From a virus (taxonomy: Duplodnaviria; Heunggongvirae; Uroviricota; Caudoviricetes): 64,000 nt of DNA. Both the position numbers and the translations under genes were made by a program. The stretch lies in the IMG/VR virus record IMGVR_UViG_2534681834_000006. One strand, 5' to 3'. The notes beneath the pieces were generated by a model that was given only the letters and a program-made list of their open reading frames with translations, did not search any database and was not told the origin of the DNA. Shown here in pieces: positions 5,476 through 13,299 of this stretch; position 1 is the first letter of the stretch, and each line of letters opens with the position of its first letter.

Positions 5476-5831
5476 AGCACCACGTCCTGTGTGATAGTTA
5501 TATCCCTGATACGAATGGATATTTTCAACTTATCAAAAGCATCTCCCTCGGCAACTGACAAGCCAGAAATCGGTATGTCAGGTAAATCTACCGTCAGTTT
5601 TTGCAACAGCATTGCCTCAACCGCAATTTGAACATGCGACAAGTTGGTCGGTTCGTGTTTAAACTGCGGTAAAACATTGCCCCATGACGGATCCCCGTAT
5701 ACCTCACCCTGATAAGTGTTTAGCCACTCATATAAACGAGCGCCCCAGGCCTCCTCCTGGGACTCATACGTTTTTACGCCGGATAACTCCAGCGTCAGCA
5801 AAGGATCAATTTCGTTATTGTTGGCCATCAA
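5472..5831 (-). CDS. hypothetical phage protein
   Basis: 119-aa ORF overlapping the sit stop by 4 nt. Confidence 0.4.
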   Translation of the reverse strand: MMANNNEIDPLLTLELSGVKTYESQEEAWGARLYEWLNTYQGEVYGDPSWGNVLPQFKHEPTNLSHVQIAVEAMLLQKLTVDLPDIPISGLSVAEGDAFDKLKISIRIRDITITQDVVL

Positions 5832-8800
5832 TCAACTCTCGCGTAGTCATTCATCAACGGATCATCAATTGACAGTGGTACCGTGCGCATAACGCCCGGC
5901 TGAGGCGTGCTGACCTTTACGACAGTTCCCTGGCCTTTCGCCGAGTCTTTGGTGTGCTCTTCAATCCTGGCAAGTAATGAGGTCATCTGCGCAAACAGCC
6001 GCTTCGTTTCACCATCAAGTGAAACGGTATTATCAGCCAACTGCATTGTCGGCTTGGCACCGGAACCACCAAGGTCACTAATAACCTGTCCGTCTATCTG
6101 CATACGACCGGTTGGTTGCTGCAAATCGTTGGCGGCAGTCGTCACCTGGGACGTGGAGGCTGGTTCAGGCGCATTATTTTTCCGCATCCCCGGCGAGTTG
6201 CGGAGTTTATCGAATAGTCCATCAATCCCCATTTGTGCGCCGAGTTGGTCAAAGTAACTTGAGTTGCTGGTCACCGGACGCGCCTCTTCAACTGGCATCG
6301 GAGTATCAACATACACATTGCCAGCTGCTGTTGCGGTCCCCTTCCCTCGTGCACGTTCTTCGAGCGTTCCCTGAACGACTTCCCGACGCATACCCCGGCC
6401 ATTCATGAATTTGTTGACCAGATCGTTAACGCCAACAGCATTGCCGATTTTGTCTACCAGACCGCCTTTCTCAAACGGGCTATCACCAGGGGTAAACGCC
6501 AGGCCAGTAGACTGATCGATAACAGCGTTATCAGGCAGTGGTCCCCTCACTCCATATTGCGCCCCACCCTGTGCTCCTGCTCCAGGTGTATAGATTTCAC
6601 CACCTAAATAGCGAGCACGATGAGTATTGACCTTGATCGCGTACTCACGGTTTTCTTTCGATAAGTCACCTGTGCCTTTTTTCCACTTATTGATAGTGCC
6701 AAACCCAGCGTTATATGCAGTGATGGCCTCGTTTAAGTCTCCATTGGCTTGCTTCAGATACTTGCTCATGAGAAGAGCCGCAGCTTCTGCCGATTTCACA
6801 GGATCAAACGATTCACCTTCAGCTAAGCCAGTCTCTTCACGAGCAATCCCCGTGAACTGAAACATTCCCAGAGCACCGGTTTGGGATTTTGCATACGGAT
6901 TACCACCAGATTCAGTTGCAGCAATCGCGTAAAGAGTGCCTTCTGGAAGACCATATTTATTCTCTAGTTCAGCAAAATACGGAGCCAACTTATCGAGATT
7001 TGCCTTACCTTCAGATCCAAGACTTCCGACTTTTACATCCAAGCGGCCATTGTTGTAGGTATCCGCAGCTTTCTGAATGTCATTCCTGGTGCCAGTGGTA
7101 TTAAGCGACGATGATGACGAGCTATTTTGACCAATAGCTTTATCAATTTTCTGCAACGCGCTATTGCCCGTTTCTGCGGCATTTGCATTGATAATCTGAT
7201 TCGCAGTTTCTTTAACTGTTTTATTGCTATCTTTCGCCGTGTCCAGTGCCGCATTTATCACGCGGGTAACAATATTAGTCTGTTTGGCATCGGATTCAGT
7301 TTTAGAATCAGATGTCTCCTGGTGGCTATTAACCGGAGCTTTTAACTCTGGAGCGATTTCTTTCGCATTAGCCTCGCCGATCGGATTGGGTATTTTTGAT
7401 ACAATCATTGCCGCAGGGGTATTTTTAACGGCATCAACCGCTGCATCTAATGCTTTACCAGGTAAATTTTTAACCCCATCCCAAATATTACCAGCCGCCT
7501 CTTTAATGTGTTTCCCTGGGTTCTTAATGAAATCAATTGCACTATCAATTGCATCACTGAAAACCTGTTTCAGGTTATCAACAGTAAAGAAGTCTTTGAT
7601 GGCATCCAGCTTTTCAAGCAGCTTATTAGATGTATCGCTAAACCATGCTGAAACAGCATCACCAATCTTTGCTGTGTAATCTTCGAACTTGGTAGAAATG
7701 GTGTCGCCAAGGTTAGAAATATATGTTTCTAAGTTGGTAATCCCACTATCAATGGCCTGGGCAATACTTTCCGTCGAAAATGATTGCAACATATTGCCGA
7801 TATCCTCAAATCCAAGTGATTTGAGAACCTCACCAATGGCGCTGCTAATACCAGATACCAGTCCCCCCATATCAAGAACATTGGCTAACGTATAAGCGGC
7901 TTTTTGCTGGAATGATGGATCTTGTCCTGATTTAAGCCCAAACGCTCGACGTTGCGCTTCTGTATCATTCCAACCGGTTACCGCATCATAAATACCTCCA
8001 GCCACTGTGCCGACTAAGGGAATTGCGCGTAACGCCCCTTTACCAACTGCCTTTAATCCAAGTTTACCTGCTGCCCGGGCAGCCAAATCTCCACCTTCAT
8101 GGGCGATAGTCTTCTTGCCACCACCGCGTAGCATTCCTACAAGTTTCTTTGCCCCCAGAGCGCCAAAAGCGAGTGCTCCAGCTTTTTTCAGCATGCCACG
8201 CCCCATTAACAACGACGCGACGCCACCGGCCCCCTTCCCTAACAGGCTAAATAGTTTGGACAGCAAGCCGCCCTTCTTTTTCCCGGTGTTTTTGGCTATC
8301 TGATCAAGGGCGCTGAGAATCTTGTCATTGCCCTCTTTAATTTCGCTGGTCTGCTCCTGAAGTTCCTGAACTGTCCGTTTTTGGGTGTTAACCTGAACGA
8401 CATCGGCACTATTTTGCGATTTACGCCTAAAAAAACCTTTTCTACGGCTGTTATCGTCATTGCCACGAATCACATCGGCAATAGACTTTCTGGCACCATT
8501 AAGCGATCCACCAACTTCTTTTGATATCCCGCCAAGCTCCTTCCCTGCTGCCCACAATGGACCAGCAACGGCATAACCTAACGCATCAACGGCACGAGTC
8601 TCTGAAGGGTTACCTATGCCTTCAGCTACTTTTGACAGTTTTTTTAATAAACCTGATTCAGCATTTAGACGCTCATCATCCTCTTTGCGCCTGGCCTTTT
8701 CAGCACGTTCAGCACGGGCATCTTCCGCTGCGGCCTTACTCCCTGACTTTCCAATAAAACGACCACGCGCATCGCGTTGGTTTTGGCTTTTTTGCGCACC

Positions 8801-9517
8801 GCCTTTTTGATCGAACATTTCGCGAGCGTGTTCGGCTGCTTCGGTCCGTTGTGCCTTTATATCCTCTGGTATAGCCTTCCTGCGTCGTTTTTTACCCTTT
8901 GGTGTAGTTGATTTGGCCTGCTGTTCCTGTTGAGCAATGCCCTCCTGAACTACACGAGAAACGTCCCCTAAATTAAGCCGTTTCATTGCGTCAACAATAG
9001 GGTCTACTGATGGCGCATTGGCCACAAAGTCTGGCCGGGAATTTTCGATTGTTCGATTTAATGCCGACACACTGCGAGATACTGGGTCAACCGTTGCAAC
9101 GCGTTCCCCTTTCAAATCACGAGCGAGTTTGACCGTTTCTAACCGCTGTGCTTTAACATCCTCTGTTATTGCCTCTCTTCGTCTATTTGGGGGATTGTGC
9201 GCTGTTGGTGCAGCCTGCTGTGCACGGTTAGTGACTTTGTCCTCCCGTATACGAGAAACGTCCCCTAAATTAAGCCGTTTTATTGCGTCAACAATAGGGT
9301 CCACTGATGGCGCATTGGTCACAAAGTCAGGACGTGAATTTTCGATTGTGCGATTTAATGCCGACACACTGCGAGAGACAGGATCAACAGTTGCAACTCG
9401 TTCCCCTTTCAAATCTTCAACAGCTTCCCGAATACCTGCAAGCTCTTCCAGCTCTTTCGCGCTGGCGGTTTCAACTGTCCTTATAACATCGTCAATATTG
9501 GCGTTTTTTCTTTCCAT
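5828..9517 (-). CDS. sit: tail tape-measure / internal virion protein with soluble lytic transglycosylase domain (P1 Sit-like)
   Basis: 1229 aa; SLT motif ...ESGGNPYAKSQTGALGMFQF...AYNAG; Gly/Ala/Lys-rich central region; internal tandem duplication near the N terminus. Confidence 0.8.
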   Translation of the reverse strand: MERKNANIDDVIRTVETASAKELEELAGIREAVEDLKGERVATVDPVSRSVSALNRTIENSRPDFVTNAPSVDPIVDAIKRLNLGDVSRIREDKVTNRAQQAAPTAHNPPNRRREAITEDVKAQRLETVKLARDLKGERVATVDPVSRSVSALNRTIENSRPDFVANAPSVDPIVDAMKRLNLGDVSRVVQEGIAQQEQQAKSTTPKGKKRRRKAIPEDIKAQRTEAAEHAREMFDQKGGAQKSQNQRDARGRFIGKSGSKAAAEDARAERAEKARRKEDDERLNAESGLLKKLSKVAEGIGNPSETRAVDALGYAVAGPLWAAGKELGGISKEVGGSLNGARKSIADVIRGNDDNSRRKGFFRRKSQNSADVVQVNTQKRTVQELQEQTSEIKEGNDKILSALDQIAKNTGKKKGGLLSKLFSLLGKGAGGVASLLMGRGMLKKAGALAFGALGAKKLVGMLRGGGKKTIAHEGGDLAARAAGKLGLKAVGKGALRAIPLVGTVAGGIYDAVTGWNDTEAQRRAFGLKSGQDPSFQQKAAYTLANVLDMGGLVSGISSAIGEVLKSLGFEDIGNMLQSFSTESIAQAIDSGITNLETYISNLGDTISTKFEDYTAKIGDAVSAWFSDTSNKLLEKLDAIKDFFTVDNLKQVFSDAIDSAIDFIKNPGKHIKEAAGNIWDGVKNLPGKALDAAVDAVKNTPAAMIVSKIPNPIGEANAKEIAPELKAPVNSHQETSDSKTESDAKQTNIVTRVINAALDTAKDSNKTVKETANQIINANAAETGNSALQKIDKAIGQNSSSSSSLNTTGTRNDIQKAADTYNNGRLDVKVGSLGSEGKANLDKLAPYFAELENKYGLPEGTLYAIAATESGGNPYAKSQTGALGMFQFTGIAREETGLAEGESFDPVKSAEAAALLMSKYLKQANGDLNEAITAYNAGFGTINKWKKGTGDLSKENREYAIKVNTHRARYLGGEIYTPGAGAQGGAQYGVRGPLPDNAVIDQSTGLAFTPGDSPFEKGGLVDKIGNAVGVNDLVNKFMNGRGMRREVVQGTLEERARGKGTATAAGNVYVDTPMPVEEARPVTSNSSYFDQLGAQMGIDGLFDKLRNSPGMRKNNAPEPASTSQVTTAANDLQQPTGRMQIDGQVISDLGGSGAKPTMQLADNTVSLDGETKRLFAQMTSLLARIEEHTKDSAKGQGTVVKVSTPQPGVMRTVPLSIDDPLMNDYARVD
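9000..9420. repeat. internal tandem duplication (two units of about 0.3 kb period) inside sit
   Basis: Protein segment ERVATVDPVSRSVSALNRTIENSRPDFV.NAPSVDPIVDA.KRLNLGDVSR occurs twice; DNA around 9020-9120 and 9320-9420 is nearly identical. Confidence 0.6.
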
Positions 9518-11116: not shown

Positions 11117-11707
<591 letters not shown>

Positions 11708-11763
11708 TTAACAGATTCTACGAGTTGTCATTTGTGACAGTATGCTCGCAATCGTAGTGATTA

Positions 11764-12303
11764 CTACCACCAACTGCTAGCTTTCTTCTCTCTAGCTTTT
11801 CCTTCGCTTTGCAGTAAATCTTTACTTCCTGTAGAAATATTTCTATTTGCATCAGCCTCAGACTGAATTACATCTGTCTTAGCTGCTCTCTCCTTCAACT
11901 CCTGCTCTATAAAATCGTTTTCTCGCTGGACACGAGCCGCTTTTGCTTGCAGTTCGAGTTTCATGCTTTCGAGTTGCAGCTTGCGAAGCTCATCCTCATA
12001 AGCTTGATCTCGCTTCTTGTCATTTGCTAGCTCGGCTTCTCGTTTCGCTCTACGTTCATTTTCTGCAGCAACACGCTGTTTTTCGCGTGCAGCAGCGGCA
12101 GATGCTGCTTTTTCTCTTCTAATACGTTCAGCTTGTGCTTGTTGGCGAATAAGTTCTTTTCTGGCATCCTCAGCTTGCTGCTCTTTAGCTCGCCCTTCAT
12201 TTTCCGCTTGAGCAATAGCAGCAATTTGACTTTGCAACGAGTTAGCCAAGGCAGTGCCTACACTAAACGTAGAAAAGATTAGAAATAAAATAATTTTATT
12301 CAT
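11764..12303 (-). CDS. secreted coiled-coil protein, TolA domain II-like (Ala/Glu/Lys/Arg-rich)
   Basis: N-terminal signal peptide MNKIILFLIFSTFSVGTALA then long charged helical repeat region. Confidence 0.55.
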   Translation of the reverse strand: MNKIILFLIFSTFSVGTALANSLQSQIAAIAQAENEGRAKEQQAEDARKELIRQQAQAERIRREKAASAAAAREKQRVAAENERRAKREAELANDKKRDQAYEDELRKLQLESMKLELQAKAARVQRENDFIEQELKERAAKTDVIQSEADANRNISTGSKDLLQSEGKAREKKASSWW

Positions 12304-12306
12304 AAA

Positions 12307-12828
12307 TTATTTCTTTTCTGGACAAGTAGCATTTGGCTGAATTCGAGTTTCATTATCTTTAGTTGAAATAAGCACAGCAAGCCCCGTTGTAAACTGGCAT
12401 GCTTTACCAACTTGAGTTGAAGTGAACACCTTAGTTCCTTCTTTATAAGTCAGTGAAACACCTTCAACAATTGTTTTATCACTAACCAAAGAACCAGCCG
12501 CTGCACCAAGAGCCGCACCACCAGTACCGCCAGCTACAGCACCCAGTGTCGATGTGCCTTTAACATTATAACCGGCAACGCCCCCAGCAACAGCTCCCAG
12601 TACCGCACCAAATGTCTGTGCCGCTTCTTTATTAGCTTTATTATCAACTTTCACTTTAGCTGGAAGCACAGAGATAATATTGACTGTCTTTGTTTCCTGC
12701 TTCGAATTCAATTGAGCGGTATCATAAACATCGGCAGCATAATCAGCACCGCTAGATTGACACCCAGAAAGAAGAATTGCAGATACAACAAGAGCGCATA
12801 AAGTATACTTTTTAGACATAAGAATCAT
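12307..12828 (-). CDS. outer-membrane lipoprotein with glycine-zipper (SlyB/Pcp-like)
   Basis: Lipobox LLSGC; Gly-zipper GAVLGAVAGGVAGY...GAVAGGTGGAALGAAAGS. Confidence 0.6.
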   Translation of the reverse strand: MILMSKKYTLCALVVSAILLSGCQSSGADYAADVYDTAQLNSKQETKTVNIISVLPAKVKVDNKANKEAAQTFGAVLGAVAGGVAGYNVKGTSTLGAVAGGTGGAALGAAAGSLVSDKTIVEGVSLTYKEGTKVFTSTQVGKACQFTTGLAVLISTKDNETRIQPNATCPEKK

Positions 12829-13109
12829 CCCAGAAAAACAAAAACCGGCGAGAAGTTACCACAAGAACGGAAAGTAAACAAGAATACTCCCATTGACTTA
12901 TATCAATTAATCAACTTTTTATAAGCTATCCCTAACTTATTGTGTATAGCTGAAAAGTCAGAGACAAGTTCACCATCTGCATTATTTCTTAAGTTAATAG
13001 TTTATTGCTAACTTAATTTATGTATCGACTATTGATATCCATCTTAAAGTTACAATATCCATCTGCATTATTTTTCATCACAAATAATATATCTATTGCA
13101 CGACACTAA

Positions 13110-13126
13110 TCTGCTCTAATAAATTT
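13110..13126 (+). promoter_or_regulatory. C1 repressor operator-like 17-mer upstream of the c4/icd/ant promoter
   Basis: tctgctctaataaattt, 15/17 to ATTGCTCTAATAAATTT. Confidence 0.5.
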
Positions 13127-13164
13127 GTATTTTTAAGTCGCGAATGCTATCTTTTTGCATCATA

Positions 13165-13193
13165 TTGACCTTTTAATCGTTCAGGCTTATAGT
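13165..13193 (+). promoter_or_regulatory. sigma70-type promoter for the c4-icd-ant transcript
   Basis: TTGACC - 17 nt - TATAGT. Confidence 0.5.
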
Positions 13194-13299
13194 TTCGCCG
13201 TCGTAGCAAATTCTGCGACCGGGTTTAGCAGCCTGAATACTTACGCGGACAACCGCAGATTTCCGATATTGCGGTATTTTTGTGTCCGTAAACCACGTT

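Follow-up and report, generated by a model that had tools for sequence, protein, structure and literature searches.

Why should a phage-plasmid carry, directly beside its immunity region, two genes for exported envelope proteins, and to what are these genes related? The question is raised by positions 11764–12828 of the IMG/VR virus record IMGVR_UViG_2534681834_000006, a stretch of 64,000 nucleotides (hereafter the window), which derives from a phage-plasmid of the P1 family and of P7 type, that is, a plasmid-prophage. An inspection made without database searches (the sequence-only reading) had distinguished here, just upstream of the immI block, a SlyB-like lipoprotein with a lipobox and a glycine zipper and a signal-peptide protein with a long charged helix resembling TolA domain II, and had proposed that the latter, as a periplasmic mimic of TolA, could interfere with incoming phage DNA, the two genes forming a superinfection-exclusion module. 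Our analysis confirms both open reading frames and their export signals and places them in another context. By homology, the pair is a divergent version of yfgH–yfgI, a gene pair of bacterial chromosomes, and it occupies the position held in P1 by simABC. We favour the view, to which we assign a probability of roughly 0.45, that it constitutes a prophage-carried module stabilising the outer membrane in the manner of YfgH and SlyB.

The two genes are encoded on the minus strand and are separated by 3 nucleotides:

12307..12828, minus strand: YfgH-like (P7 Upf50.5) gene for a predicted SlyB-family glycine-zipper outer-membrane lipoprotein of 173 residues (open reading frame and homology)
11764..12303, minus strand: YfgI-like (P7 Upf50.0) gene for a predicted DUF5384 periplasmic long-helix protein of 179 residues (open reading frame and PF17358 match)

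The region 11500–13200 is 98.8% identical to phage P7 and 99.3–99.7% identical to SJ46, RCS47, phi456 and other P1-like elements, while the two proteins are 100% identical to Upf50.5 and Upf50.0 of P7. Both genes and their export signals are thus already known from the P7 record, which lists upf50.5 and upf50.0 as encoding an outer-membrane lipoprotein and a membrane protein, respectively, of unknown function and each with a signal peptide. They are real genes and not chance open reading frames, because the match of the helical protein to PF17358 (E = 3e-43) is joined by the occurrence of an identical or nearly identical cassette in ~168 plasmids of PLSDB and 11 phage records, and by a ratio of nonsynonymous to synonymous substitution rates (dN/dS) of 0.02–0.16. 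The exact cassette was found by blastn in 182 of 5426 complete E. coli genomes, on plasmids, and its carriers are gut and animal isolates of E. coli and Salmonella.

The annotation of this pair varies between records. The phi456 record labels it 'minor tail protein' and 'tail tip protein', which is a misannotation; the PHROG family phrog_1277 bears the label 'DNA methyltransferase', as a result of which the RefSeq phage records NC_050152, NC_031129 and NC_042128 give the lipoprotein this name; and OR339795 is likewise among the records that misannotate the lipoprotein/DUF5384 pair.

Relation to the host yfgH–yfgI operon

The chromosomal relative of the cassette, at ~69% nucleotide identity, is the yfgH–yfgI operon beside guaBA, detected by blastn in 5420 of the 5426 complete E. 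coli genomes. At the protein level the lipoprotein is homologous to E. coli K-12 YfgH over its full length (67% identity over 171 residues, E = 6e-73) and the helical protein is 47% identical to K-12 YfgI. The E. coli relatives are not the prophage genes yfjS and yfjT, as blastn returned yfgH and yfgI.

The association of the two genes extends far beyond Escherichia. We sampled 80 DUF5384 loci from ~80 species, spanning Enterobacterales, Pasteurellales, Vibrionales, Aeromonadales, Pseudomonas, Nitrosomonas, Acetobacteraceae and others, and found a YfgH-like reading frame directly upstream and on the same strand in all 79 loci that could be evaluated (76 directly and three with genes overlapping in different frames, the remaining contig being too short to judge). 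The window has the same arrangement, with the DUF5384 gene directly downstream of the YfgH-like gene. In three loci of Pseudomonas the lipoprotein and DUF5384 genes looked fused, but this was an artefact of stop-to-stop reading frames, since the genes there overlap in different frames. As judged from this gene order, yfgH-like and DUF5384 genes are obligate partners.

What is known of the host proteins gives the pair a physiological setting. YfgH is an outer-membrane localised lipoprotein and integrity factor, the loss of which aggravates lptD defects, confers sensitivity to vancomycin and to sodium dodecyl sulfate with ethylenediaminetetraacetic acid (SDS/EDTA) and entails a loss of outer-membrane proteins; it is induced by defects in outer-membrane biogenesis, on overexpression rescues knockdowns of outer-membrane biogenesis genes, and has been modelled as SlyB-like rings (preprint 10.64898/2025.12.22.696046; PMC3219608). 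It co-purifies with BamA, LptD, OmpF/C/A, LamB and TonB-dependent receptors (preprint 10.64898/2025.12.22.696046). Mutation of yfgI causes hypersensitivity to nalidixic acid (PMC3536626), which, because YfgI is exported, may reflect an effect on permeability. The orthologues of yfgHI in S. Typhi, srgIL, are members of the regulon of SdiA and N-acyl homoserine lactones (AHL), and Typhimurium is without the operon (PMC11619404).

Some apparent phage copies are in fact the host operon itself. The pairs at 47% identity in IMG/VR and in TL-2011b, considered as phage cargo, are in reality the chromosomal yfgHI genes, caught at the margins of predicted prophages: the contigs of TL-2011b (JQ011317, 41366–42436), of loci L064, L039 and L042 and of ~55 more IMG/VR loci end in chromosomal yfgH–yfgI, 98–99% identical to K-12. 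Host homology in these contigs stops just past guaA, so that the prophage family concerned integrates between guaA and yfgI, and at such insertions prophage callers count the host pair as phage genes.

The lipoprotein and its helical partner

The two proteins show the following features:

12760..12771, minus strand: lipobox L-S-G-C, residues 20–23, with Cys23 as predicted lipidation site (regular-expression match)
12493..12609, minus strand: predicted glycine-zipper helical hairpin, residues 74–112 (overlapping GxxxG/A repeats; PF05433 match)
12244..12303, minus strand: Sec signal peptide, residues 1–20, with the cleavage site between ALA and N (sequence; the P7 record annotates a 60-nucleotide signal peptide)
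11767..12021, minus strand: conserved C-terminal half of the DUF5384 protein, residues 95–179, ending in -SWW (conservation among homologues)

The lipoprotein begins with MILMSKKYTLCALVVSAILLSGC followed by QSS and so contains the LSGC lipobox with an invariant Cys23, as do lipoproteins of the YfgH/SlyB type; the residue at position +2 after Cys23 is Gln, and hence there is no Asp that would signal retention in the inner membrane. Three cysteines, C23, C144 and C169, are invariant among 54 homologues, a pattern which fits a lipidated cysteine plus a disulfide bond in an exported domain. The two-helix glycine zipper of the YfgH/SlyB type is recognised by its GxxxG/A motifs at residues 74–112, where PF05433 scores below its cut-off (18.2 versus 24.2 bits); 34 of the 54 homologues match PF05433. 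A profile built from these homologues matches SlyB (PDB 7OJF/7OJG) end to end, at positions 10–163 of 171 (E = 1.7e-9). The AlphaFold2 monomer is of low confidence (predicted local distance difference test, pLDDT, 54.6), with helices at 64–88 and 94–113 and the order strand, helical hairpin, beta domain; since this model is too poor for a fold search, we relied on the SlyB profile match instead.

The top Pfam match is a different one, namely TraT (PF05818, E = 7e-5, profile positions 74–160 of 214), yet its 23.1 bits fall below the gathering score of 31. Similarly weak TraT similarity is seen in 45 of the 54 family members. The profile search of the PDB with the same homologues recovered SlyB and not the TraT chains, and we assign the lipoprotein to the YfgH/SlyB family and not to TraT. 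By analogy with these relatives the phage lipoprotein would be located in the outer membrane and form ring-shaped oligomers. The lipoprotein of the sequence-only reading, with its lipobox, glycine zipper and SlyB likeness, is thereby upheld.

The second protein starts with the signal peptide MNKIILFLIFSTFSVGTALA, followed after the cleavage site by NS. In the mature protein of 159 residues, Ala accounts for 19%, Glu for 14.5%, Arg for 11%, and Lys and Gln for 10% each. It matches PF17358 (DUF5384) with 147.8 bits against a cut-off of 25, and AlphaFold2, given 52 homologues, predicts one uninterrupted helix from residue 3 to residue 178 (pLDDT 87.9), which for the mature protein corresponds to a length of ~24 nm. 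The helix is not uniform in its conservation. Residues 35–100 are rich in Ala, Glu, Arg, Lys and Gln with very few large hydrophobic residues, and vary among homologues in both sequence and length. The C-terminal half contains every invariant residue of DUF5384 (D104, A141, D144, S148, A150, D151, R154 and G159) and 19 of the 21 that are near-invariant, and a heptad-like hydrophobic pattern runs through residues 91–146. A sequence profile search of the PDB gave no match at E <= 1 for this protein; nor did Foldseek find a PDB match for the model, a result expected of a lone helix and for that reason uninformative.

How far, then, does the likeness to TolA go? BLASTP against E. coli TolA yields E = 0.037, with 30% identity over 74 residues and 20% gaps in a low-complexity match, and the Pfam scan of the helical protein shows no TolA family. 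Membership of TolA, understood as homology together with an N-terminal anchor and domain III, can be dismissed in view of the cleavable signal peptide and the lack of both a TolA Pfam match and a PDB match. What the protein has in common with TolA domain II is its composition and helicity, and nothing more. Of the earlier proposal, the long charged helix survives as a confident prediction and the homology does not; the mechanism by TolA mimicry is abandoned, since the protein has neither homology to TolA nor its domain III and, after cleavage of the signal peptide, no anchor. The signal peptide and lipoprotein prediction that the same proposal had called for gave the expected outcome, an LSGC lipobox and an ALA-N cleavage site.

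An exchangeable slot beside the immunity region

The cassette lies within a block that is swapped as a unit between P1-like elements:

11736..13111, no strand: swapped cargo block of 1376 bp (pairwise blastn against P1 and pCREC20_3)
13110..13126, plus strand: Op(c4), operator of the C1 repressor, TCTGCTCTAATAAATTT, bounding the block on the right (position taken from the P7 annotation)
11715..11734, minus strand: late promoter LPsit, bounding the block on the left and downstream of the cassette (mapped from the P7 and P1 annotations)

In pairwise blastn, homology to P1 and pCREC20_3 ends at 11735/11740, just past LPsit, and restarts at 13112, inside Op(c4). The P1 equivalent of 11736–13111 consists of simA-simB-simC on the same strand, so that the cassette shares with the Sim system its place between LPsit and the c4 operator as well as the exported nature of its products. 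The same breakpoints enclose two unrelated genes in pCREC20_3 and, in pLR-25_1, a variant of the pair (76% identity) together with a gene resembling DUF559 proteins and restriction endonucleases. Among the plasmids of PLSDB, ~168 carry the cassette at 99% identity or more, 137 a complete simABC and ~128 the 5' end of simA only. All slot alleles that we have seen encode N-terminal export or membrane signals: SimA, SimB, SimC and both pCREC20_3 proteins possess signal peptides, and the extra protein of the pLR-25 slot has an N-terminal transmembrane segment. The cassette is non-structural accessory (moron) cargo in an exchangeable slot flanked by the late tail operon and by immI. Consistent with this, the sim region is one of eight known variable regions in P1-like phage-plasmids (PMC9603915), and simABC is dispensable for growth of P1 (PMC10695390). 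P1 Sim is reported, as cited in PMC8546580 and PMC9177967, to cause superinfection exclusion by blocking the entry of superinfecting DNA.

The similarity between the slot alleles does not extend to their sequences. Neither cassette protein resembles SimA, SimB or SimC (best BLASTP E = 0.21) or Sit, no family of the PADLOC-DB v2 defence models matches either of them at E <= 0.1, and NCBIfam gave no informative match for them. One of the other alleles does show a link to Sit: the 224-residue slot protein of pCREC20_3 (L006, 2493–3167) combines a SimA-like signal peptide with a stretch of 47 residues that is 49% identical to residues 1026–1068 of Sit (E = 1e-8), and may, to judge from this stretch, act as a periplasmic decoy of injected Sit. 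The pattern of pCREC20_3, in which only the 5' end of simA is retained, is common to the ~128 PLSDB plasmids mentioned above. The consecutive accessions NZ_CP083586.1 (372 kb), with a variant yfgHI-like pair, and NZ_CP083587.1 (94.5 kb), of the simA-5' type, have the same source (E. coli, meat), and may represent two P1-like elements with different slot cargo in one strain.

The region upstream of the lipoprotein gene belongs to the swapped block and contains the following features:

12829..13111, minus strand: AT-rich upstream region of 283 bp with 30% GC, presumed promoter site (GC content; not homologous to P1)
12973–12987 and 13059–13073, upstream of the lipoprotein gene: two exact 15-mers, CCATCTGCATTATTT, 86 bp apart

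Because the cassette is located upstream of LPsit, it is neither part of the late tail operon nor driven by this promoter, and its expression in the lysogen would proceed from its own AT-rich promoter region. This region is unrelated to that of chromosomal yfgHI. The pair of 15-mers may be a binding site for a regulator; it is absent from the 76%-identical pLR-25 variant.

Mobility, phylogeny and selection

Outside the P1-like elements, the closest relatives of the pair (64–68% identity for DUF5384 and 72–75% for the lipoprotein) are found at the ends of P2-like prophages or prophage remnants in E. coli (L008–L011, next to aspS/yecD) and Salmonella (L012–L014). These copies are situated directly past the genes for the tail fibre and a DUF4376 chaperone, on the opposite strand, and have a promoter close to consensus, TTGACA-16-TATATT. 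The E. coli prophage is possibly defective, since gene calling placed no baseplate genes between its gpD-like gene and its tail-fibre gene. The pair also travels on non-phage elements, as pYLMB10c (L005; 7.5 kb, ColE-type, mobilizable) carries a Kluyvera-like yfgHI pair beside a phosphoethanolamine-transferase gene and IS1; a near-identical copy of the pYLMB10c type is present on a 7.7-kb contig assigned to Acinetobacter (L102).

In both protein trees (neighbour-joining, no bootstrap) the phage-borne copies form one clade apart from the Escherichia chromosomal genes. Within this clade dN/dS amounts to 0.02–0.16, with synonymous change saturated, and the phage-borne pair is under strong purifying selection. 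At the sites conserved in chromosomal homologues, the phage clade shows no fixed change in the lipoprotein and one in DUF5384, from F to W at the C-terminus.

What does the pair do for the lysogen?

Its biochemical identity is well supported: a SlyB-type lipoprotein of the outer membrane and a periplasmic helical partner, borne as a moron. Since the homology to YfgHI is high, no conserved residue has been lost and the partner gene is still present, we favour a role in stabilising the outer membrane. After export, the Upf50.5-like protein would receive its lipid at Cys23 and pass to the outer membrane, where its glycine-zipper hairpin would insert and oligomerise into rings, as for YfgH and SlyB, encircling and stabilising outer-membrane proteins and lipids. 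The Upf50.0-like protein would leave the cytoplasm by the Sec route, be cleaved after Ala20 and adopt the ~24 nm helix, of which the variable N-terminal two-thirds, rich in Ala, Glu, Arg and Lys, could serve as a spacer, with the conserved C-terminal 85 residues contacting the lipoprotein or the membrane. If expressed in the lysogen, the pair would add to or replace host YfgHI, and the outer membrane of the lysogen would become sturdier and less permeable, any lower entry of other phages being a by-product.

Several considerations weigh against this picture. Nearly all complete E. coli genomes (5420 of 5426) already possess yfgHI, so that a redundant copy requires a reason, be it regulation, dosage or specificity. 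The sole characterised cargo of the slot, sim, has an exclusion function. The phage lineage, an old one, stands apart from every chromosomal lineage sampled, which fits specialisation for a phage-specific task as well. The AlphaFold2 monomer of the lipoprotein is of poor quality (pLDDT 54.6), the presumed contact between the two proteins is drawn from synteny alone, and much of the functional evidence on YfgH comes from a preprint. As for expression, the upstream region contains one weak sigma-70-like site (13095..13067), next to Op(c4), and no more such sites than shuffled controls.

A second interpretation, less probable but to be taken seriously, is that the pair is dedicated to superinfection exclusion and substitutes functionally for Sim without any mimicry of TolA. 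Lipoprotein rings and a helix of periplasmic length might mask receptors or obstruct the tail tip or the Sit-mediated channel, resulting in poor adsorption or DNA delivery. This part of the sequence-only reading, once TolA is set aside, has circumstantial support: simABC, with its reported block to superinfecting DNA, is replaced at identical breakpoints on the same strand, all slot alleles encode proteins with export or membrane signals, and the Sit-like segment of 47 residues in one of them suggests that the slot gathers factors interfering with injection. Furthermore, the pair abuts tail-fibre genes in P2-like prophages, a location typical of genes for lipoproteins that mask receptors, among them Cor and Llp. 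YfgH co-purifies with the known phage receptors OmpC/F/A, LamB and TonB-dependent receptors, and a precedent exists in TraT, a ring-forming outer-membrane lipoprotein with chromosomal relatives that was co-opted by plasmids for surface exclusion (PMC11733297). On the other hand, the proteins show no similarity to SimA, SimB or SimC and no PADLOC match, and every family-conserved residue is kept, with no sign of neofunctionalisation. The receptor of P1 and P7 is the core of the lipopolysaccharide, not a protein that a ring could cage, and the analogy of position is weak, as slots at prophage ends also hold virulence and fitness genes. A bolder version, in which SlyB-like cages and the periplasm-length helix make up a two-component device replacing Sim, and the near-universal chromosomal yfgHI is itself an innate anti-phage barrier of the envelope that mobile elements have repeatedly co-opted, just as plasmids co-opted TraT, we consider rather doubtful.

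The presence of gut and animal E. coli and Salmonella isolates among the carriers, the inclusion of srgIL in the SdiA/AHL regulon of S. Typhi (PMC11619404) and the weak similarity of 45 of the 54 family members to the TraT complement-resistance family could alternatively point to lysogenic conversion of the Bor/TraT kind, serving host interaction or virulence by resistance to serum, complement, bile or antimicrobial peptides, with general membrane stabilisation as no more than a secondary role. We regard this as improbable, given that the TraT match stays under the Pfam threshold (23.1 versus 31 bits) and the PDB profile search gives SlyB and not TraT; the idea also overlaps heavily with stabilisation of the outer membrane. 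A superficial likeness to two-component spanins, consisting of an outer-membrane lipoprotein and a ~24 nm helical protein with a hydrophobic N-terminus, might suggest a lysis pair fusing the membranes, which is very improbable in the face of a canonical ALA-N signal-peptidase site in place of a stable anchor, a lipoprotein gene that comes first, a location outside the lydA/lydB lysis region and not behind a late promoter, the absence of the pair from P1 and many P1-like phages, and the presence of orthologous pairs on the chromosomes of ~80 species without phage context. Membership of the Rz/Rz1 type was rejected on these same counts (AxA cleavage site, gene order, location and absence from P1). 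Lastly, only the phi456 annotation and the vicinity of tail genes would make the proteins structural components of the virion, as some GenBank labels have it and as the sequence-only reading had named as the case that would overturn it. This is scarcely credible: the lipobox and the Sec signal export both proteins from the cytoplasm, where virions are assembled, P1 does without either of them, and they are orthologues of a core chromosomal operon.

Flanking features

On the plus-strand side of the cassette, past Op(c4) and from ~13155, follow c4 RNA, icd, ant1/ant2 and kilA; on the minus-strand side LPsit is succeeded by pmgC/tubA, tub, pmgB and sit. An inverted repeat of 18 nucleotides (11684–11701 and 11713–11730, 89% complementary, with a loop of 11 nucleotides) overlaps LPsit and the pmgC leader in the part conserved in P1. 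The sit gene (5828–9517, minus strand), which encodes the tape-measure/injection transglycosylase, contains a direct duplication (8907–9118 and 9204–9415, 297-bp spacing, 84% identity) of a segment that is single-copy in P1 and P7; Sit comprises 1229 residues here versus 1130 in P7 and 1140 in P1. A longer tail could follow if Sit serves as its ruler.

Significance

Beyond the annotation of P7, our analysis adds the distinct phage-borne lineage of yfgHI, its allelism with sim and the universal pairing with DUF5384, none of which we found in the searchable literature; nor did this literature yield anything on DUF5384, on upf50.0/50.5 or on an exclusion phenotype of P7. P1/P7-like phage-plasmids are common in human and livestock E. 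coli and Salmonella, and their single slot amounts to a natural experiment, since it can be filled by the exclusion genes of sim, by a duplicate of an operon with which the host protects its membrane, or by genes for other exported proteins. The cassette bears on whether nanodomain lipoproteins of the YfgH/SlyB type can serve as barriers to phages, a role in exclusion, if true, raising its interest, and it would provide a functional entry point to DUF5384/YfgI, the partner of YfgH throughout the Proteobacteria. Database labels by which the lipoprotein passes for a DNA methyltransferase or for a tail protein would be corrected as well.

Comparison with known systems

TolA domain II forms a similarly long, Ala/Glu/Lys-rich periplasmic helix, and the helical protein lacks the other features of TolA, namely the uncleaved N-terminal anchor and domain III, hence also a module for binding TolB/Pal or colicins. 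TraT of the F plasmid, which mediates surface exclusion and complement resistance, resembles the phage lipoprotein in being borne by a mobile element, in its outer-membrane lipoprotein nature and in having relatives on chromosomes; it forms rings, with membrane helices and a beta-sandwich (PMC11733297). The similarity between the two is a weak Pfam one over residues 59–145, below the gathering score, and TraT is ~70 residues longer and without a helical partner protein.

The simABC genes of P1 share with the cassette the slot, the strand and the breakpoints between LPsit and Op(c4), and both are non-essential accessory cargo with exported products. They differ in that there are three genes as against two, with no sequence similarity, and in that the reported exclusion phenotype is that of Sim. 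SlyB (7OJF/7OJG), which is induced by stress and forms rings around outer-membrane proteins and lipids, has in common with the phage protein the type of lipoprotein, the glycine-zipper hairpin and the C-terminal beta domain, but is a distant paralogue and not an orthologue, and the rings known for SlyB are predicted for the phage protein by analogy; to our knowledge, the slyB locus has no DUF5384 partner gene.

The closest counterpart is YfgH–YfgI of E. coli, with the same two genes in the same order, on the same strand and with a short gap, at 67% and 47% identity, and with the same lipobox, glycine zipper, cysteine pair and DUF5384 domain, the residues conserved in the family being retained. 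The C-terminus of the DUF5384 protein reads -SWW in the phage pair versus -(S/G)WF(N/K) in the chromosomal proteins. What sets the two apart is above all their place, the host pair belonging to the core chromosome and that of the window to a phage-plasmid or prophage, in a separate and old clade.

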